A stretch of 16,477 nt of DNA from Pseudomonadota bacterium (GTDB taxonomy: Bacteria; UBA10199; 2-02-FULL-44-16; JBDRGF01): positions 1-16,477 of the forward strand of contig JBDRGF010000100.1 of NCBI GenBank assembly GCA_043818055.1, given 5' to 3'. The position numbers were made by a program, and so were the translations under genes. Below are positions 598 to 16,305 of the stretch, piece by piece. Numbering within the stretch: position 1 is the stretch's first letter; each line of letters starts with the position of its first letter. The notes beneath the pieces were generated by a model that saw only the letters and a program-made list of their open reading frames with translations, made no database searches and was not told the DNA's origin.

Positions 598-669
598 ATC
601 TTGTATATTTTAGTAGGTTGATATTTCTACGAAAGAGTCTGTTACTGAAGTCTGTTTTTTGATGTTTTT

Positions 670-731
670 GTAGGGGCAGGTTTCAAACCTGCCCTATTCC
701 ATTTTTGGGCGGGTTTGAAACCCGCCCCTAC
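670..731. repeat. GTAG-family REP doublet in inverted orientation (REPIN/BIME-like)
   Basis: GTAGGGGCAGGTTTCAAACCTGCCC (670-694, +) and GTAGGGGCGGGTTTCAAACCCGCCC (731-707, -). Each is a GTAG tetranucleotide plus a palindrome. The same family recurs at 5456-5516 and 16236-16260. Confidence 0.85.
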
Positions 732-834
732 AACAATTCAATATACAAACGACTTTGGCAACAGCCTCGAAATAGTAGAAAATACATTTGCTACTCCCTT
801 GCATTCTACATGAAAATTGGTTTAAGAAGCCTGT

Positions 835-5434: not shown

Positions 5435-5455
5435 CGCATCCTCCTGATATATTTT

Positions 5456-5516
5456 GTAGGGGAGGGTTTCAAACCCTCCCGTTATTATGGTGGGCAGGTT
5501 TGAAACCTGCCCCTAC
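5456..5516. repeat. GTAG-family REP doublet in inverted orientation
   Basis: GTAGGGGAGGGTTTCAAACCCTCCC (5456-5480, +) and GTAGGGGCAGGTTTCAAACCTGCCC (5516-5492, -). Same family as 670-731. Confidence 0.85.
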
Positions 5517-5539
5517 ATTAATTCAGTAATTTCGCCCCC

Positions 5540-8214: not shown

Positions 8215-8392
8215 CCACACCCGGTGTGGGCTTTTGACTCACCGGGTGTGGATCCTTGTGGTTGGGGTCGATGAATTGCATTTCGCTTTTCCTAACAACC
8301 TAAACACCTACAGCCTATCAGCCTATTATATATTCCATTTGCCTTCACGCCGTTACGGGTATAAGAAACTGGAAAACACAATCATAAATCGA
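8215..8392. repeat. Direct-repeat module, copy 1 (37-bp palindrome plus conserved leader)
   Basis: CCACACCCGGTGTGGGCTTTTGACTCACCGGGTGTGG (8215-8251) is identical to 8895-8931. The downstream blocks AATTGCATTTCGCTTTTCCTA, CCTATCAGCCTATTATATATTCCATTTGC and CGGGTATAAG are also shared. Confidence 0.85.
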
Positions 8393-8413: not shown

Positions 8414-8842
8414 ATGAAAAGAATAACACGAAAACAAAGTGATGAGTTGTGGGGAGAGGACGGTCCATATTCGCAAGCGCAGCTGATAGAGGAAGAACGA
8501 ATATTGGACGACTCCATCTCAAGAGTCTTCGTCATTGTTTCCGTTAATATCAATCCCTTTACGTTCAAATATGTAAAGAAGCACAGAAAGAAATTTGCGA
8601 ATAATCATATAATTCAGAGTTTGCTTGATGCTTCAAAATATCAGGGAACTAAAGATGGTTACTGTTGCTACGTTTTCCATGCGGAATATGTGAATGAACA
8701 GGTGATGCAAGAAGCCAGGCATTATCTTAAGATAGCAAGAGAAACTATCATTTTAATGCACAAATTTGTGATGAAATGGCTTGGTTTGGAAGTTGAAAAA
8801 CAGGATGTAAACAATGTGCTGCAGTTCAAAGACCTGCATTGA
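8414..8842 (+). CDS. Hypothetical protein (142 aa)
   Basis: ATG 8414 is preceded by GAGGG (MKRITRKQSDELWGEDGPYS...). The upstream extension to 8192 merely reads through the repeat module. Confidence 0.7.
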   Translation: MKRITRKQSDELWGEDGPYSQAQLIEEERILDDSISRVFVIVSVNINPFTFKYVKKHRKKFANNHIIQSLLDASKYQGTKDGYCCYVFHAEYVNEQVMQEARHYLKIARETIILMHKFVMKWLGLEVEKQDVNNVLQFKDLH

Positions 8843-8894: not shown

Positions 8895-9041
8895 CCACAC
8901 CCGGTGTGGGCTTTTGACTCACCGGGTGTGGTGGTGGTGCCGGTAAATTGCATTTCGCTTTTCCTATCAGCCTATTATATATTCCATTTGCTTTCGCGGT
9001 CTTGCGGGTATAAGTATCTAAAAAATATAATCAAAAATTGA
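8895..9041. repeat. Direct-repeat module, copy 2
   Basis: Same 37-bp palindrome and leader blocks as 8215-8392, but lacking the 23-bp CCTA-unit expansion seen at 8291-8313. Confidence 0.85.
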
Positions 9042-9258
9042 CTTAGAAATTTGTGGATGTTAGAGCCTTTTCAGTTTTGGGGGGCTCTTCTTTCGCTATA
9101 TCCTACATGTCACATATTCTGACTATTTTATCTGAGGACTTCACACCCCTTATTTCAACTTTTTTCGGTTTTTAAAAGATTTTACGCAACTTTCAATTTT
9201 AATGACGATAATGTATAAGAATATGAAAGAAATTTATGGTCAAAAAGGAGGCACATCA

Positions 9259-10899
9259 ATGAAGAAAAATCTTAAGAAGGGTTTTATAAGCAAATTGTTA
9301 CTGCCTTTTCTCTTATTATCGTCACTGTTTTTTCTGATTCAATGTGGTGGAGGTGGTGAAAATGATGGTAGTTCTTCCACTGAAGGGAATGTTTTTGATT
9401 TATCACAATACCCTGAAATTTCTACAAACAAAAACGACATTGGTTTGTTTGCTCTCACTGCATACTCATATTTAGAATATATGATGTCACTTGCTGGGAG
9501 AGACTTGAACAGAGCTATTACAACCGGAAATGAAAACAACCTTACAAATTCTTCAATGCTGTATAAAGCTGTAAAATCTTTTCAAGAGGACGCAAAAAAT
9601 GCCACTGCTCTAGCGATGGCGCTTGGAGATGGAGAAGAAGAAGAAATTGAACTTGATGGCGATACGGAAACAAAAGAAACAGTTGCGCTGAATCGCGAGG
9701 CACTGGAAACATTCGAACGAGTTTTATATTGGGAGTTTAAAAAATTGATTGATGAACAAAATACTTCAAAATCATGGAATTCAAAAAGTTTATGGGATGA
9801 TCTGATTGCAAGTGCAAATCCACAAAATATGAGAACAGCTAGTTTAATCACTGAAACTATTTCAAGAGCTTCGGATATAGCCTCAGGAGTGCTAGCTGTG
9901 ATGTGTGCTGCTGTACCTCCAGCTGCTCCTGCTACATGTTCTGCTTTTGCAATATCGGTTAAATTCAGTTCTTCAGCTAAACTCGCATTGCTGATTATCA
10001 ATATGTATCCAAGCCATCTTACTGGAATAGAAGTTAAAGGACAGAGAGGCTGCGAATATTACAATTATCCATGTTATGATCACTATATAACCTGTTCTGG
10101 AAATCCAGAAGCTGTGAAAAATGAATCTGTTATTGAAATAATGGGCGTTTACGCCAATGATGTCTCACAAGCAACAGATATGTTAATAAGTAAATATATC
10201 TCGAAATATATTGAAGAAGCCTTTCACAAGATTCCTGAAGGCGCTATGAAAGAATATTATGTCAAAAAAATCTCTGACAGCTTAATTGAACTGACAAAAA
10301 AACTGGGAATGTCGGAGGATTCTAAGATATCTTTATGGCAGGAGAAATATCTTATAAATCAAGAAAATGTTTCGTTTAAACTGTCACAAAAGAAAGTTGA
10401 AATTAAGGAACTCGAAGTAAATTACAAACCAATAGGAGCATATAGGATTACCACAGAAGACGATGGAACTGGGGCATTGATTGTCGAGTTAGAGGTATTA
10501 CCTTATTATGCTGAAGAGTCGACTATAAAAGAGACTGTTCAAATAAAATCATATACGCCAATAGCTGCGAAATTAAGTTTTAACTTGGATAATGTGAGAA
10601 TTGTGAGAATAGCAGGAGGTTCTACTTATTTTATGTTTAAATCAGATGATCCGTATTTAGCAAATATCACAGAATGTTCTTTTTCATATCAGGTTAAAAC
10701 AAATAGTTACACCGATTCTGGGTCAAATAATCCGTGTTTTGCATTTTACACGCACGACCCGCAGGTAATTGGAAAGGGCTGGGGCAAAATTGAGTTGATG
10801 ATTGCATGGCTAGGTTCAACAGGCTCAGGATCTGTCGATATGGATCTTAAGGATGTCTGTGGAAATTCGTTTCATGCATCTGAGTCGGCAAGTTGGTGA
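9259..10899 (+). CDS. Putative lipoprotein of unknown function (546 aa)
   Basis: AAGGAGG SD before ATG 9259. Basic n-region, hydrophobic h-region and a lipobox-like LIQ-C followed by a GGGG/Ser linker. Internal hydrophobic stretch (GVLAVMCAAVPPAAPATCSAFAISV) and a beta-rich, Cys-containing C-terminal region. Confidence 0.8.
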   Translation: MKKNLKKGFISKLLLPFLLLSSLFFLIQCGGGGENDGSSSTEGNVFDLSQYPEISTNKNDIGLFALTAYSYLEYMMSLAGRDLNRAITTGNENNLTNSSMLYKAVKSFQEDAKNATALAMALGDGEEEEIELDGDTETKETVALNREALETFERVLYWEFKKLIDEQNTSKSWNSKSLWDDLIASANPQNMRTASLITETISRASDIASGVLAVMCAAVPPAAPATCSAFAISVKFSSSAKLALLIINMYPSHLTGIEVKGQRGCEYYNYPCYDHYITCSGNPEAVKNESVIEIMGVYANDVSQATDMLISKYISKYIEEAFHKIPEGAMKEYYVKKISDSLIELTKKLGMSEDSKISLWQEKYLINQENVSFKLSQKKVEIKELEVNYKPIGAYRITTEDDGTGALIVELEVLPYYAEESTIKETVQIKSYTPIAAKLSFNLDNVRIVRIAGGSTYFMFKSDDPYLANITECSFSYQVKTNSYTDSGSNNPCFAFYTHDPQVIGKGWGKIELMIAWLGSTGSGSVDMDLKDVCGNSFHASESASW

Positions 10900-10959
10900 A
10901 AATATCTTGAGTTGACTAAATAAAAATTAAGTTATTTAGTTCAGATATAGGGGGACAAA

Positions 10960-11355
10960 ATGAAAAGACCGATCTCTTTGACGATTATCGGATGGTATTT
11001 GATGTTGACAGGGGGTGGTGAGTTTTTTACTTCGTTTCTGGAACTAAACTCATCAATGACTCAAGACATAATGCGATTATTTGGGCAGATTTCATTTCCG
11101 CATCGCAATATGTTTATGTTAACAATTAGCGCGATTTCGCTTGTCATCGGAATTGGAATATTAAATCAGAAAAACTGGGCAAGATTTGCATATATTATTA
11201 CTGAATTAACAAAAAATATAGTTTTTCTATTTTTATCACCACTAAAAATTGGAATTGTGCCTTCTGTCTTTCTGTTCCTAATTTTTGCGTTCCTTCTTTT
11301 TAGACCCAATGTTGGAAAATATTATAAACAAGCAGAGGTGATTCATGCTGAGTAA
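10960..11355 (+). CDS. Small integral membrane protein (~4 TM)
   Basis: GGGGG SD. Four hydrophobic segments with the pattern KRPISLTIIGW...GILNQKNWARFAY. Confidence 0.8.
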   Translation: MKRPISLTIIGWYLMLTGGGEFFTSFLELNSSMTQDIMRLFGQISFPHRNMFMLTISAISLVIGIGILNQKNWARFAYIITELTKNIVFLFLSPLKIGIVPSVFLFLIFAFLLFRPNVGKYYKQAEVIHAE

Positions 11356-11755
11356 CATCATTAGCTTTATATTTTACTGTGTCTCGTATTTGTTATTTCA
11401 ACTTACAATTATTTATTCGTTCGCATTTATAAATGTTGTGGCGTGGATAAAATTTGGAACTCTTGGAGGGTTATATATCTTATCATCGTTTTTTCTTTTT
11501 ATTGGTTTAGCAATTCAAAGGTTTCGTATGTGGAAACAGAAGATAGGAGTAGTATTTATTACAGTTTCTATATCAATGATCGTGATTATTTTACTTTCAT
11601 TCTTGCTTAAATATTTTTCAAATATTGATCAAATTATGCCAGAATGGGGGAAAAATATTGTATCGCTTGATTATGTCACTGGAATAATTTTTGTTATTGT
11701 ATTTAGTTTTATAGGTTCTTGTTGTCTTTATTTATCAGAAAGAAAATCGAAGTAA
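11345..11755 (+). CDS. Small integral membrane protein (~4 TM)
   Basis: GAGGTG SD. An 11-bp overlap with the upstream gene suggests translational coupling. Four hydrophobic segments. Confidence 0.8.
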   Translation: MLSNIISFIFYCVSYLLFQLTIIYSFAFINVVAWIKFGTLGGLYILSSFFLFIGLAIQRFRMWKQKIGVVFITVSISMIVIILLSFLLKYFSNIDQIMPEWGKNIVSLDYVTGIIFVIVFSFIGSCCLYLSERKSK

Positions 11756-11776
11756 ATTTATTTTACCTTAGTAATA

Positions 11777-11905
11777 CTACAGTCGTAAGCCCGTAGATGT
11801 ATAAAACCCGTTGTTCACGTGGCCGAAACGTGAATAGGCAAGTGAATGCGAACAACGGGCAAGCGAAGCTTGAATTGTATGATGCCATGGCCGTAAGGCC
11901 ATGGT
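11777..11905. other. GC-rich multi-hairpin intergenic element (repeat, MITE-like or structured RNA); last hairpin may act as terminator
   Basis: Four hairpins: imperfect CTACAGTC-GTAA-GCCCGTAG (11777-11796); 10-bp stem CCCGTTGTTC/GAACAACGGG (11807-11859); CAAGC-GAA-GCTTG (11860-11872); CCATGGCC-GTAA-GGCCATGG (11885-11904). Confidence 0.55.
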
Positions 11906-11908
11906 TAT

Positions 11909-12102
11909 TCACTCTATCATCGGCATATCGACGATAATTGGTGGTGGAGTGGTCGAATGTTCGAAAAGCGAGTTTTGAATGATCATTTGAGTGTCTAAAT
12001 AACTGATGCCTCCGACGTATGGCCGGCCGGCGAGAGCACAGTCAGTTGGATTGTATGAAAGCGGGATGTGTTTGATCCCCCATGTTTCGTCGGTGCAGAT
12101 AT
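11909..12102 (-). pseudogene. Headless 3' remnant (last 63 codons + stop) of a paralog or allele of the S8 peptidase gene
   Basis: Aligns without gaps to 12943-13136 (offset 1034) with 29 mismatches in 194 nt by hand count. ICTDETWGIKHIPLSYNPTD...PPPIIVDMPM(I/V)E-stop is present in both. Confidence 0.88.
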
Positions 12103-12392
12103 CCGTGGGGAAAAGATATGTATATAAGTTTAGATCGAAAGACAATTTTGTTATTTTTTCCGCTGAGTGTAAATACACATACCAAGTTGATTCAACTGCT
12201 AGAAAATATTCTTCACCAGAAAACTTTTGCCAATTAAATGGCGAACTAAATTATGATACGGCTTCGGCAAGCAAAGCTGAATTTTGGTTAGATTTCAGTG
12301 TGCAGGGAGGCACAGGAAGTGCTTCAATATCTGGGAAGTTAGATGATTATTGTGGTAATGTGTTTACTGTCACTAAATCTGTAAATTTCTAA
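12103..12392 (+). pseudogene. Headless 3' fragment homologous to the C-terminal domain of the 9259-10899 lipoprotein (orphan alternative C-terminus)
   Basis: 12129-12392 aligns ungapped with 10636-10899 over 87 aa, ending at the same stop position. There are 24 identities, including all three Cys (ECxxxYQV, NxC, GxTGSxS...LxDxCGNxF). No signal peptide or convincing SD. Confidence 0.75.
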
Positions 12393-12421
12393 GAATAGCA
12401 TGTAAAAAGGGGGAGGTTAGA

Positions 12422-12925
12422 GTGAAAGCTTACAAAGAATGGTATATTAAGATTTTTATGCTTTCAATATTTTCTGGATTATCTTTGTTGTATTCACAAG
12501 AAGCTTTGGCATATGATCATTCTGTAACAGCAACAACAATGTTCTTTTTCACGCTTATTATAGCTTTTATATTGTCATTAAAAATTAAATATCTGATTTT
12601 TTCAAACAAAATTTTAAAAAAGTTAATTCTGCAAATGCAATTTGTCGAAATGGGAATATTAATTCTTTTTGCAGTAATTCTTTTTGAATTTAGCAGGATG
12701 AAGTTTTTAATATTTGCATTTCCTGTATGTACCTTGCTACCTAATTTATACTTAATTCGTAAATCCAATAGTGTAACAAAACATTTTTCTGGGAATTTAT
12801 GGAATATTGGTATTTCTATGTTGCTCTCATTAATCTTCCTTGTCTGTGTGTTCGCAATAACTATTTTATCAACAATATTGTATTCAATAATAATTGGAGA
12901 ATTTAAGTTGCAAGTCATTCAATAG
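12422..12925 (+). CDS. Integral membrane protein (167 aa, possible cleavable signal plus ~4 TM)
   Basis: GGGGGAGG SD before GTG. The N-terminal hydrophobic segment ends in A-L-A and is followed by four hydrophobic segments. Confidence 0.78.
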   Translation: MKAYKEWYIKIFMLSIFSGLSLLYSQEALAYDHSVTATTMFFFTLIIAFILSLKIKYLIFSNKILKKLILQMQFVEMGILILFAVILFEFSRMKFLIFAFPVCTLLPNLYLIRKSNSVTKHFSGNLWNIGISMLLSLIFLVCVFAITILSTILYSIIIGEFKLQVIQ

Positions 12926-12942
12926 TGTTGTTCCCAAGCTTT

Positions 12943-15900
12943 TCACTCCACCATAGGCATATCGACGATAATAGGTGGGGGAGTATTGGGATGTTCGAGG
13001 AGCGAGTTTTGAATGATCTTTTGAGTGTCTAAGTAGCTGATTCCGCCGACATAAGGACGGCCGGGGAGGACGAAGTCTGTTGGGTTGTATGAAAGAGGAA
13101 TGTGTTTGATTCCCCATGTTTCGTCGGTGCAGATATTCTTACCCGCGGTTTTTTTTTCCCATTTCGAACATCTGTAAGAATCAGCGACTATTATCCATTC
13201 ATCTTTACACTGGAAGATGTAACGGTGTTTGGTGAGAAGAGGCTTGCAACTGGCATCAATTGCAATCGGAGTATAATCTATTGGAGGAGCAGCGTTTGAA
13301 AATGACAAGTTCTCGATCAACGCCAGATTTACACCCAGCTGAACTATTCCAACTGCTGTGCTGCTCATCCAGTAATCAGGCGGCATCAATATTAATTCGT
13401 TTCCTCCATTTAATTTTGGTTCAATAGGATTACCACATTTTTCAAGTCCAATTTTTTTGCAACGCTCGTAATCATCACCTTGACCAAGTTGTGCGCTTGC
13501 AACACCGCTTGTCCAAGCCTGTATTCTTCCAGCAGCCGGTAACGTATCCGGTGTTTTGACAAACAACGCTTCAACTTTATCGTCGATATCCGTTTCATAA
13601 GAATCCTGAGAACTTACATATGGCTGGTATGCCCAGCCCGGAGCTACTTTGAGCTGTTCGTCTGTAAGATATTTTACTTCTATGTCCCATTTACCATCGG
13701 GGTTATTTGGCCCACCCAGATCAACCCGCCAGTAGCCATCAGAGCAGAGGATTGAGATATCAGCCCAGTTGTTAGCAACTTTTGGTTTATTACTATTACC
13801 TATTAGATCAGCCACAGCAGGCCTCGAATATTTGCTCTTCCATGGGTCGATGTTGAGTTCATCTTTCCAGTCGTATTGAAGCTCTTTGTCCCAAGTTACT
13901 ATACGATTCTCACTTCCATTGATATAATCGACATTCATATATTCGATATACCATTTGCCATGTTCTTTATCGTAGAGCATGAGATCGGAACGATGATCTG
14001 CGTCCATATCCTTTACATATGGCAATATCCATTTGCTGTTTATATCAGCGTAGTTGATTATCAAATCCCAAGAACCGTATTTCCTGCTGAACCTATACAT
14101 ATTGCAATAACCATCTGGTTCTCTAACTCCTTTAAGATCGGAGCACCATGTGGCATCTGTTCCCTTTGAACTGAGGTCGATCTTAAACTCCCCCCGTTTC
14201 CAACTGACTATATCCATCAGACCATCGCCATCAATATCCATATCGACACTCATCTGATCCCCCCTCGGCCAGAGAAGATCGTCTGAACATAACGGATCGC
14301 TTGAGCTTCCGTCGGGATCATGTTTTATGCAGACCAGACCTACTCCATTGACGCGCATCGATATAATTTCCTGTTTGGTCATACGATTGATGTTACTGAG
14401 TTGTTTGGGGTTTAGTTTCAACGCAGGATATTGAGCAGATATCGACTGCCAGTAGTTATCAACTGCCTTCAATAATCTGTCCATCTTTGGCTGGACGCCG
14501 ATATTTTTTCCGGTTGTGTCCTTCTGGTTATCGCCGCTCGATCTCATGAGCTCCCTTATCTTCTTCGGCATGATGTATCTCATTCTTCCGTTTCCTGCTA
14601 ATTGCATAAATCTGCTCTGAACTAGTGTAACAGCGCCACCGACTATCGCAGTTGCACCGGATGTCCCACCAAAATGGTTCGTGTAGAATTTGTGTTTGTC
14701 ATTCACAGGGTCTTGTGACGGTGGGCCGCCAGCGCCCTTCCAGTAGAAGGGGGATGTTGTAGCATCGCCGTATGGATATGATGTCGTAACAATGCTGCTT
14801 CCCCACGAATATGCATCAAGCCTTGAGCTGTAGTTGCTAAAAGATGCCTTTTGCATATTAGCACCTTCGCTTGCACCTACAATAATAGCGCCGCTGTCCT
14901 GTGTCGTTGGATTGATCCACACGCTCCACTGGCCTGTGTATTGGTTTGCGTCACCGATATCAATATTGCTGTTGCCTGCACCTTCGACAACTGTGATACC
15001 CATCGCTGAAAGAGTTTGGAAATATTTCATCTTGTCGGGAACAACCTCTGAAGGTAACTGGCCAGCATTATAACATGGATCGCCAAACTTGCAGTTGATT
15101 TTTCCATCTTTCCCCACTACAGCGGATTCGATGAGATGAACTGAACCCGGAAATGTGTTCGAATCATGATCGTCACCTAATGGAAAAATATTTGCCTCTT
15201 TATAATACACCGGCGGATTCCCAGCTAATAACTTTGCATCCGGTGCAATTCCCTTTACACCAAAGTTTCCGGTTCCATTATTATGTGACGCGTTGACAAT
15301 ACCTGCAACAGCTGTCCCGTGGCCTATTACCAGATACATGCAGTCAATGCCGCAAGATATGTAATATGGCTGTTTGTCCATCGGGAGATGATCTGCAAGA
15401 GATGTTTTTTCTCCAACGAGAGAGCCCTTTGGATTGTTCTTCTCATCATATACTGTGTAATTTAACTGTAAATCCTCGTGGAAGAAATTATATGCTGCAT
15501 CATCGTTGTATATATGCACACCTTTTCCAGTGACGCCCTGGTTCCAAGCTGAAAAAGCATCTATTCCGCCATTTGCTGTCAGATATCCCTGCTGTGGTGA
15601 AAGATCGGGGGTCGTTACAGCTGTGAGCACCTTCTGCAGATGGGGATAGATGTATTCGACACCGTAGAAATTTTTTAGTCTGTTGTATAAAACAATGGCC
15701 TCTTTGGGTTCTGCCTTGAAGTAATAGATCGAGTTGAGATCGGGAAGTTCTTCGGAGTTTAACTCTTCAAGGTCGCGCTTGAAGATATCATATTCATCCT
15801 GCCTCATAGTGAGATATCTTCTCACTTCTACCTGGTGCTCTTCGAGTATCCTATTTAAATTATCTGCCAGGCTTTGATAATAGAAATTCCGCACTTCGAA

Positions 15901-16305
15901 TTGGGGTTGTGGTTTTGTTGTTGTAAATGCGCCTCCCCCTTGAGGGGGGAGGTTGGGTGGGGGTGAGGAATATAATCTCACCACCAAATCATCCCTGAAA
16001 TGCACGACAATCTCACCAAGATATCGATCGGACATGATCATATCTTCTGGTGTGATTTCTTTTGTGATGGAATCGGTTGGATTTATTTCAGGGGCGTCGT
16101 TTCCTTTAGAACCACAAGAAACAAAAATAAATAACACTATAATGATTATAAAATGTAGGGGCAATCCCCCGTGCTTACCCGCAGGCAGACACAGAGGTTT
16201 GCCCCTACAAAGCTGGGGGAAGGGAATAAAAAAGCGGGCGGGTTTAAAACCCGCCCCTACATTGACGTTAAAATTTCTTATATTTTTAGAGGCATTTCCT
16301 CTCAT
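12943..16305 (-). CDS. Secreted lipoprotein S8 (subtilisin-like) serine peptidase with C-terminal FG-GAP/VCBS-like repeats
   Basis: GGAGG SD before ATG 16305 and lipobox FVS-C (Cys64). Triad motifs: GKGVHIYNDDAAYNFFHEDL (Asp), HGTAVAG (His) and FGGTSGA (Ser), plus VEGAGN (oxyanion Asn). DSGAIIVGA...FSNYSSRLDAYSWG resembles the Peptidases_S8_11 subfamily. Ca-binding-like DIDGDGLMDI and DMDADHRSDL repeats follow. Confidence 0.9.
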   Translation of the reverse strand: MRGNASKNIRNFNVNVGAGFKPARFFIPFPQLCRGKPLCLPAGKHGGLPLHFIIIIVLFIFVSCGSKGNDAPEINPTDSITKEITPEDMIMSDRYLGEIVVHFRDDLVVRLYSSPPPNLPPQGGGAFTTTKPQPQFEVRNFYYQSLADNLNRILEEHQVEVRRYLTMRQDEYDIFKRDLEELNSEELPDLNSIYYFKAEPKEAIVLYNRLKNFYGVEYIYPHLQKVLTAVTTPDLSPQQGYLTANGGIDAFSAWNQGVTGKGVHIYNDDAAYNFFHEDLQLNYTVYDEKNNPKGSLVGEKTSLADHLPMDKQPYYISCGIDCMYLVIGHGTAVAGIVNASHNNGTGNFGVKGIAPDAKLLAGNPPVYYKEANIFPLGDDHDSNTFPGSVHLIESAVVGKDGKINCKFGDPCYNAGQLPSEVVPDKMKYFQTLSAMGITVVEGAGNSNIDIGDANQYTGQWSVWINPTTQDSGAIIVGASEGANMQKASFSNYSSRLDAYSWGSSIVTTSYPYGDATTSPFYWKGAGGPPSQDPVNDKHKFYTNHFGGTSGATAIVGGAVTLVQSRFMQLAGNGRMRYIMPKKIRELMRSSGDNQKDTTGKNIGVQPKMDRLLKAVDNYWQSISAQYPALKLNPKQLSNINRMTKQEIISMRVNGVGLVCIKHDPDGSSSDPLCSDDLLWPRGDQMSVDMDIDGDGLMDIVSWKRGEFKIDLSSKGTDATWCSDLKGVREPDGYCNMYRFSRKYGSWDLIINYADINSKWILPYVKDMDADHRSDLMLYDKEHGKWYIEYMNVDYINGSENRIVTWDKELQYDWKDELNIDPWKSKYSRPAVADLIGNSNKPKVANNWADISILCSDGYWRVDLGGPNNPDGKWDIEVKYLTDEQLKVAPGWAYQPYVSSQDSYETDIDDKVEALFVKTPDTLPAAGRIQAWTSGVASAQLGQGDDYERCKKIGLEKCGNPIEPKLNGGNELILMPPDYWMSSTAVGIVQLGVNLALIENLSFSNAAPPIDYTPIAIDASCKPLLTKHRYIFQCKDEWIIVADSYRCSKWEKKTAGKNICTDETWGIKHIPLSYNPTDFVLPGRPYVGGISYLDTQKIIQNSLLEHPNTPPPIIVDMPMVE
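15932..15966 (-). repeat. C/G-rich palindromic repeat embedded in frame in the peptidase prodomain
   Basis: The - strand reads TCACCCCCACCCAACCTCCCCCCTCAAGGGGGAGG (CCTCCCCC/GGGGGAGG stem) and translates as SPPPNLPPQGG. Its composition is alien to the flanking sequence. Confidence 0.6.
16155..16208. repeat. Second-family GTAG REP doublet embedded in the peptidase 5' coding region
   Basis: GTAGGGGCAATCCCCCGTGCTTACCC (+) and GTAGGGGCAAACCTCTGTGTCTGCC (-). The GTAGGGGCAA/TTGCCCCTAC termini are inverted and the element is 54 bp long. Confidence 0.75.
16236..16260 (-). repeat. Single GTAG REP (same family as 670-731 and 5456-5516) embedded in the peptidase 5' coding region
   Basis: The - strand reads GTAGGGGCGGGTTTTAAACCCGCCC, one base different from the copy at 731-707. 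It translates as VGAGFKPA. Confidence 0.85.

Follow-up and report, generated by a model that had tools for sequence, protein, structure and literature searches.

Does a lipoprotein gene that is followed by the headless 3' end of a second, divergent version of itself keep a store of exchangeable tips, or was the second version left behind by a single event? This question is raised by a locus in a stretch of 16,477 nucleotides (nt; hereafter the window) from a Pseudomonadota bacterium (contig JBDRGF010000100.1 of assembly GCA_043818055.1), in which a lipoprotein gene and two membrane-protein genes (TM1 and TM2) are followed by the orphan 3' end of an S8 peptidase gene, a headless lipoprotein tip, a third membrane-protein gene (TM3) and a full S8 peptidase gene (Table 1). 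The window is the entire contig C100 of the source genome assembly, G000 (2.93 Mb, 166 contigs, 93.6% complete), which is fragmented and of low coverage. A preliminary description had proposed that the tips are stored and swapped as in polymorphic toxins, for which the orphan cassette loci of CdiA and MafB serve as comparisons, and had named as its alternative a one-off event between two divergent versions of the locus. The alternative fits best. The lipoprotein is present at the locus in a full and a headless version, and we somewhat favour the view that this is a scar, left when one module arrived and shifted its predecessor downstream in a single displacement. What is exchanged would then be the entire lipoprotein gene together with its membrane genes, between conserved multicopy flanks, the leader and the peptidase.

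The gene order and coordinates given earlier were borne out by the open reading frames (ORFs) and by sequence comparison, and the former existence of two divergent versions of the unit (lipoprotein, membrane gene or genes, peptidase) was supported. Both remnants, the orphan peptidase tip and the orphan lipoprotein tip, have kept their reading frames intact and end at a single common cut, with no decay, which supports the displacement reading. The two lipoprotein tips are related, as had been noted, with 24 of 87 amino acids (aa) identical in an ungapped alignment (BLASTP E 3e-8), a value reached by none of 100,000 shuffles. The orphan frame is open for 96 codons (equalled in 8 of 20,000 shuffles), and the proportions of synonymous (pS) and non-synonymous (pN) differences of this tip are 0.71 and 0.53. 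An ATG at 12006, which would give the orphan frame a 128-aa ORF, was ruled out as a real start; in the peptidase tip, which is encoded antisense to it, the change is synonymous.

At the DNA level, the orphan tip agrees with the full lipoprotein gene at only 123 of 291 nt (42%), with a longest exact match of 9 nt, off register, and a best blastn E of 0.21; it therefore has no anchor for swapping back. The swappable stored tip that had been proposed by analogy with CdiA, Rhs and MafB would be recognised by near-identical core DNA at the orphan 5' end, and judged on this DNA comparison it fails that defining test. An Rhs array in the same genome (C3:21392-37044) comprises a 4124-aa Rhs gene and three orphan tips, each with a small hydrophobic gene, and these orphans keep 390 bp at 90% and 60–83 bp at 71–88% of the core DNA. 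The C3 orphan tips are Ala/Gly-rich and hydrophobic. In Salmonella, 522 bp of the Rhs orphan match the main gene at 95% (PMC3967940), and the displacement model put forward for Rhs requires very high core identity (PMC2935791). The missing 5' anchor, unlike the C3 array, is a further support for a displacement, and the orphan tip is likely a leftover, with no route back onto the full gene by homologous recombination. The two peptidase tips form direct repeats of 195 nt (11908-12102 and 12942-13136, 85% identity), so that, by the geometry of the locus, their recombination would delete the 1034-bp orphan unit and not activate the tip.

The upstream flank of the lipoprotein gene is repeated in the genome. 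Its leader of about 225 bp is identical at 187 of 223 nt (84%) to the sequence ahead of a gene on contig C39 and at 169 of 223 nt (76%) to that on C46, and past the start codon the identity falls to 45 of 102 and 54 of 102 nt, respectively. Three strong copies were detected in the genome by nhmmer. All three leader-bearing proteins carry a Cys at position 29; the CGG[GS]G lipobox alone is common in G000 (9 genes). The C39 and C46 genes are cut by contig ends and gave only sub-threshold matches to CarboxypepD_reg, teneurin TTR and ZU5. A relative of this type of protein, found in 1 of 92 other genomes (G033; 48% over residues 57-358 to the C46 protein), is extended, in a second frame, by RHS (E 3e-89) and teneurin NHL domains, and behind it lie a 100-aa hydrophobic gene and an orphan Rhs cassette. 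The teneurin-like genes at L027 (G000 C39:1-1038) and L041 (G033 C15) are each split over two frames, by an assembly error or a real break. Bacterial teneurin-like proteins are described as toxin-immunity systems that are exported as lipoproteins in Gram-negatives (PMC13018210). Since the leader is common to the C39 and C46 genes, whose relative is such a protein, the lipoprotein likely shares its regulation with teneurin-like Rhs genes; this also supports the displacement reading. The idea of a polymorphic system is thus strengthened in its link to known toxins, and its storage of tips is unsupported. No structured RNA is claimed for the leader, because no Rfam match was found and 1 of 48 predicted pairs covaries.

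The downstream flank is likewise multicopy, and neither repetition had been visible in the preliminary description. The peptidase occurs on 10 G000 contigs at 69–77% aa identity (tblastn), with a short N-terminal piece on C152. At E 1e-20 or better it was detected in 27 of the 93 class genomes, among them 14 of the 21 other genomes of the order. The paralog contigs are C35, C99, C38, C34, C87, C109, C103, C148, C107 and C152, and the peptidases, of roughly 1,100 aa, have a C-terminal motif in common and are hypervariable in a block near residues 900-1020. The agreement reported between the two peptidase tips of the window (55 of 63 aa) was reproduced, at 160 of 189 nt and with a longest exact match of 25 nt. 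The neighbouring full peptidase is equally close at its tip to C99 and to C34 (160/189 nt each), and the orphan tip matches four other paralogs at 138–155 of 189 nt (pN/pS 0.12–0.22). The pS between the orphan tip and its neighbour is 0.49, the same as for C100 and C34; the orphan tip is therefore a distinct family member, and a recent local duplication of the peptidase end was ruled out. The paralogs are mosaic: the identity of C35 with C100 is 82–93% over 15840-14490 and 72% in the tip, and it drops to 45–61% in a block near 13290-13590. This indicates recombination among the copies and makes very unequal divergence normal within the family. The conserved 3' end, which had been taken for a special recombination anchor, belongs to one of at least 10 mosaic paralogs and therefore needs no special cause; exchange among the copies could keep the tips alike. 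Together with the low GC content of the lipoprotein and its membrane genes (0.27–0.36, against 0.43–0.49 in the genome, the peptidase and two housekeeping genes; lipoprotein gene 0.36 and genome 0.43; TM1 0.34, TM2 0.28, TM3 0.27), the mosaic paralogs support the displacement reading.

Table 1. Features of the lipoprotein-peptidase locus (positions in the window)
Feature	Position	Strand	Basis
Upstream leader (promoter-like site, 5' untranslated region, ribosome-binding site)	9035..9258	+	common to C39 and C46 gene starts
Lipoprotein, 546 aa, Cys29	9259..10899	+	ORF, hydropathy
TM1, membrane protein, 131 aa	10960..11355	+	hydropathy
TM2, membrane protein, 136 aa, start overlapping TM1 end	11345..11755	+	hydropathy
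Intergenic stem-loops	11756..11908		RNA fold
Orphan S8 peptidase 3' end, 63 codons and stop	11909..12103	-	paralog comparison
Junction	12093..12104		paralog comparison, X2 contig
Headless lipoprotein 3' tip, 96 codons	about 12102..12392	+	tip alignment
TM3, membrane protein, 167 aa, own ribosome-binding site	12422..12925	+	ORF, upstream GGAGG, hydropathy
Full S8 (subtilase) peptidase, lipoprotein-like signal	12943..16305	-	PF00082 E 5.5e-11

The direction and mechanism of the displacement we infer from the observed parts, the junction sequence, the missing anchor and the repeated flanks. A donor carrying the leader, the lipoprotein gene, TM1, TM2, the hairpins and the start of its own peptidase 3' region would have paired with the resident leader or 5' region, and its far end would have joined illegitimately at 12103, inside the resident lipoprotein gene. 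The resident tip, TM3 and full peptidase would have stayed in place, and TM3 is likely the partner of the displaced lipoprotein version. An ordinary double crossover between the leader and the peptidase would have swapped the whole module and left no scar. This mechanism has a published precedent, which supports the reading: for the T6SS (type VI secretion system) arrays of V. cholerae, an incoming effector-immunity module was proposed to anchor on conserved upstream DNA and to join illegitimately downstream, and these arrays are described as keeping the old immunity gene, and sometimes the 3' end of the old effector, shifted downstream (PMC5361080). A few bases of microhomology at the junction of the window are possible.

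All of this depends on the junction itself. Similarity to the peptidase stops at 12102-12103 and the frame of the lipoprotein tip continues across, as judged by paralog comparison. The window was compared with the contigs, not the reads, of 4 of 10 listed sequencing runs, from 4 studies of groundwater and biofilm metagenomes; the 6 other runs, with small window shares, were left out. In an RNA library, X2, from a study different from that of X1 (the best DNA holder and perhaps the source sample), one contig covers 11920-12130 with 1 differing letter in 211 and no gap. It extends 28 letters beyond 12102, slightly under the bar of 31 letters set for bridging. The X2 contigs cover 25 of 30 window bins; contigs cannot demonstrate transcription. 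One X2 contig (depth 2.3) has an extra A in an A run at 9593, inside the lipoprotein gene, which may be an error. The low-coverage, fragmented assembly makes an artefact conceivable, in which the 3' end of an unassembled peptidase paralog was joined to another locus: five peptidase copies have assembled 3' ends and five do not, many copies break contigs, and an X1 contig and a separate assembly, L025, each begin at 12127 and so leave the junction uncovered. L025, which matches window 12127-13403 without a difference and includes TM3, was the only return of a metagenome scan. Such a chimera is nevertheless very improbable, in view of the crossing contig from a different study, the absence of any long repeat spanning the junction, and the loose ends of X1 at 12103, which are the continuation of paralog C34. 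The junction is, with high confidence, probably real.

Two other histories have to be weighed with a real junction. Two complete, divergent units may once have stood in tandem, one deletion of at least 4.5 kb then taking out the greater part of the first peptidase and of the second lipoprotein. In that case the lipoprotein would be an ordinary surface or adhesion protein and the TM genes passengers. The junction geometry would be identical, expansion has brought the peptidase family to at least 10 copies, the predicted fold of the tip suits an adhesin, and TM1-3 (131–167 aa) are longer than the 77–100-aa hydrophobic genes behind Rhs tips on C3, G008 and G033. We consider this somewhat unlikely, since the genome holds one full lipoprotein gene and no other copy, no such module lies opposite any of the 3 other paralogs whose downstream gene is visible (these face a sensor-kinase-like gene or a sigma-54-type regulator, from translations read by eye), and the leader shared with Rhs-type genes is left unexplained. 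Alternatively, the locus could be an active two-sided cassette system, in which a tip and its membrane partner are a stored payload moved via the conserved peptidase 3' end, for instance as a 1034-bp circle integrating at peptidase tips. The unit is bounded by the direct repeats, its remnants are undecayed, and the only relative outside the genome, P0004, is also tip-sized; in the stretch of G008 examined, Rhs tip/immunity-like cassettes lie beside 2 of 3 peptidase genes. This is improbable, because nothing anchors the tip for fusion to the lipoprotein, the exact match between the peptidase tips is short, and the assembly contains a single orphan unit and a single orphan peptidase tip. No alternative joint was found in any of the 4 runs among the pieces listed (44 pieces are not shown), contigs being prone to drop rare variants, and P0004 may simply be cut by a contig end.

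The lipoprotein itself consists of a signal peptide (hydrophobic residues 9-27 and Cys29, as read from the sequence), a helix-rich N-terminal part and a C-terminal tip at about residues 440-546. No family in Pfam, NCBIfam or PHROGs was above cut-off for the protein. Among 1.84 billion representatives, phmmer returned three proteins: the lipoprotein itself; P0004, of 111 aa from a 1069-bp contig, 44% identical to residues 440-546 (E 7e-17); and P0005, a 4016-aa repeat protein (E 1.7e-6) that was set aside as a probable repeat match. The orphan tip agrees with P0004 at 22 of 88 aa, and three Cys and the motifs GxTGSxS and LxDxCGN are invariant across both tips and P0004. The tip gave no toxin or nuclease family and no notable match in Pfam, NCBIfam, PHROGs or PDB sequences, and its profile found nothing among longer proteins. 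A model of the tip built from three sequences is a beta-sandwich (predicted local distance difference test score, pLDDT, 72.9; predicted template modelling score, pTM, 0.64). Foldseek found no match to it at E 0.001, and the best VIA-align scores, with Z up to 7.6, were tied between FN3, Ig and CBM56 chains, perhaps through nothing more than a common fold; the tips are predicted Ig/FN3-like sandwiches. The full-length single-sequence model was unusable (pLDDT 34). In an atlas comparison the best feature score of the lipoprotein was 0.82, with no structure match above a template modelling score of 0.32, and P0004 had no usable hit. No homolog of the lipoprotein beyond the window was found by a word index or in plasmids.

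Pairwise comparison of TM1, TM2 and TM3 agreed with the earlier impression that they share no similarity (best E 0.47). TM1 had weak YbjO/DUF7144 matches below cut-off and no homolog, including in the other genomes searched; no homolog of TM2 was found in GTDB contigs or plasmids, and no credible one of TM3 in 92 other genomes. A TM3 match in G088 (E 6.7e-4) was dropped as chance, as it contains 3 internal stops. A complex prediction for the orphan tip and TM3, run without controls, scored 0.00 and was counted neither way. As the likeliest role, though only tentatively, the lipoprotein may be a surface-anchored competition effector co-regulated with the teneurin-like Rhs genes of the genome, the membrane proteins being protective partners and TM3 kept as the old immunity gene. 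We regard it as unlikely that it founds a new polymorphic effector family with an Ig-like targeting tip, a membrane-active N-terminal part, a leader shared with teneurin-like Rhs toxins, modules exchanged between the leader and the peptidase 3' end, and TM3-like immunity genes kept.

Several observations weigh against a displaced effector module. Residues 207-247 of the lipoprotein are marginally hydrophobic (Kyte-Doolittle, KD, 1.5–1.7), and the tip, as modelled, looks like a binding domain and not a toxin. The search for a second locus found none: a locus homologous to that of the lipoprotein was found in 0 of 40 relatives, the tip profile in 0 of 92 other genomes of the phylum, and no relative of the tip in GTDB contigs or in viral contigs. 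These searches are insensitive to distant relatives, so that their results mean "not found" and not absence, and the comparison genomes nearest to G000 are from its order, none from its family. Because no homologous locus was found, the polymorphism rests on two tips in one genome and on P0004. The leader was not found at the G033 gene, and illegitimate recombination is given as far rarer than ordinary homologous recombination (PMC5361080). Neither parent version was found in these sequences, and the deletion from a tandem pair would give the same junction. The literature searched (most subscription papers and supplements being outside its scope) held no description of the lipoprotein or of the locus arrangement.

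As for the peptidase, nothing was found tying it to the lipoprotein. The suggestion that it processes the lipoprotein found no support: the family is common in the order, and no relative of the lipoprotein, tip or TM genes was present at any of 22 peptidase loci from other genomes (19 with 1.5-kb flanks only). For some polymorphic toxins, subtilisins are listed as neighbours or as the proteases that process them (PMC3482391). The window peptidase has its His motif at residue 329 and its Ser motif at residue 549, and PF00082 is above cut-off. The usual position of the triad Asp reads Asn, with two Asp adjacent, and Asp is present in 17 of 23 listed family members; with this Asn, the protein is a predicted S8 subtilase that may or may not be active. 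REP-like palindromic repeats occur at window 666-736, 5452-5517 and 16154-16261; since the last of these sits inside the 5' end of the ORF, the true start may lie downstream of 16305.

Additional features were observed around the peptidase copies and the locus. The peptidase often adjoins a large secreted protein with a Cys-Ser-Leu sorting-like tail. AT-rich cassettes, labelled from their translations, adjoin copies at C35:414-8855 and C99:39872-47771 (methyltransferase, radical SAM, peptide-binding protein, sensor kinase and regulator) and at C38:165-6685 (several short Cys-rich ORFs with a SPASM-like radical SAM). At L030 (C9:71017-75674) and L032 (C9:100413-107079) of G008, short Rhs-core/tip genes that encode a basic, signal-like N-terminus of their own directly adjoin peptidase genes, together with small membrane genes. 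Within the window, the intergenic stem-loops fold with -48.7 kcal/mol (z -3.64), and include a 9-bp hairpin (11884-11905) immediately beyond the stop of the orphan peptidase end. They were not called by a terminator scan and are a possible terminator for the convergent genes. Just upstream of the leader, a 142-aa ORF (8414-8842) is flanked by a repeated element (8215-8392 and 8895-9041) with a hairpin and a promoter-like stretch and looks like a repeat-bounded gene cassette. The same element flanks another gene on C19 (5468-5740 and 7145-7250), ahead of a restriction-modification-like gene. For a 487-aa ORF at 835-2298, neither a Pfam match nor a paralog elsewhere in the genome was found.

Should the lipoprotein be a competition effector, it would represent a new family with no full-length relative among the representatives searched, and the locus would show that modules can be exchanged with a repeated peptidase gene as their downstream flank. 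Otherwise the locus still offers a clear view of module displacement, next to a family of S8 peptidases that is mosaic and expanded, in an uncultured lineage. The mechanism had been proposed before, and the present case rests on a single genome.

Compared with known systems, the locus resembles Rhs, CdiA and MafB loci in its headless C-terminal module and small downstream gene behind a full gene, and in its AT-rich variable part. It differs in that the lipoprotein has no RHS/YD repeats, haemagglutinin repeats or DUF1020 (Pfam, NCBIfam), its orphan tip, unlike Rhs orphans, keeps no core DNA, and its tips are homologous, predicted Ig-like domains whereas Rhs tips are unrelated toxin domains. With the teneurin-like proteins it shares a predicted lipoprotein-type export and a downstream candidate immunity gene, and a leader and signal-peptide length common to two such gene starts, but the lipoprotein has no RHS, NHL or YD-shell domain. 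The closest lipoprotein analogues are the polymorphic SitA toxins of myxobacteria, which likewise have a lipoprotein signal with Cys, an extended N-terminal part followed by a C-terminal domain that varies, and partner genes downstream; these are described with nuclease tips and at 25–80 loci per genome (PMC8546572), whereas the window has one locus, no nuclease match and membrane partners. The multicopy leader as a candidate upstream anchor, the abrupt join and the intact TM3 that would have been kept fit the mechanism proposed for the V. cholerae arrays, and a deletion in a tandem pair may have given the same picture. Unlike those arrays, the window has no T6SS genes, its protein is a lipoprotein outside known families, a single unit would have been displaced, the 3' end of a convergent peptidase gene would have been carried along, and toxicity and immunity are putative. 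By the tests run, the locus works like a displaced effector-partner module and falls outside the Rhs, CdiA, MafB, teneurin-like and SitA families.

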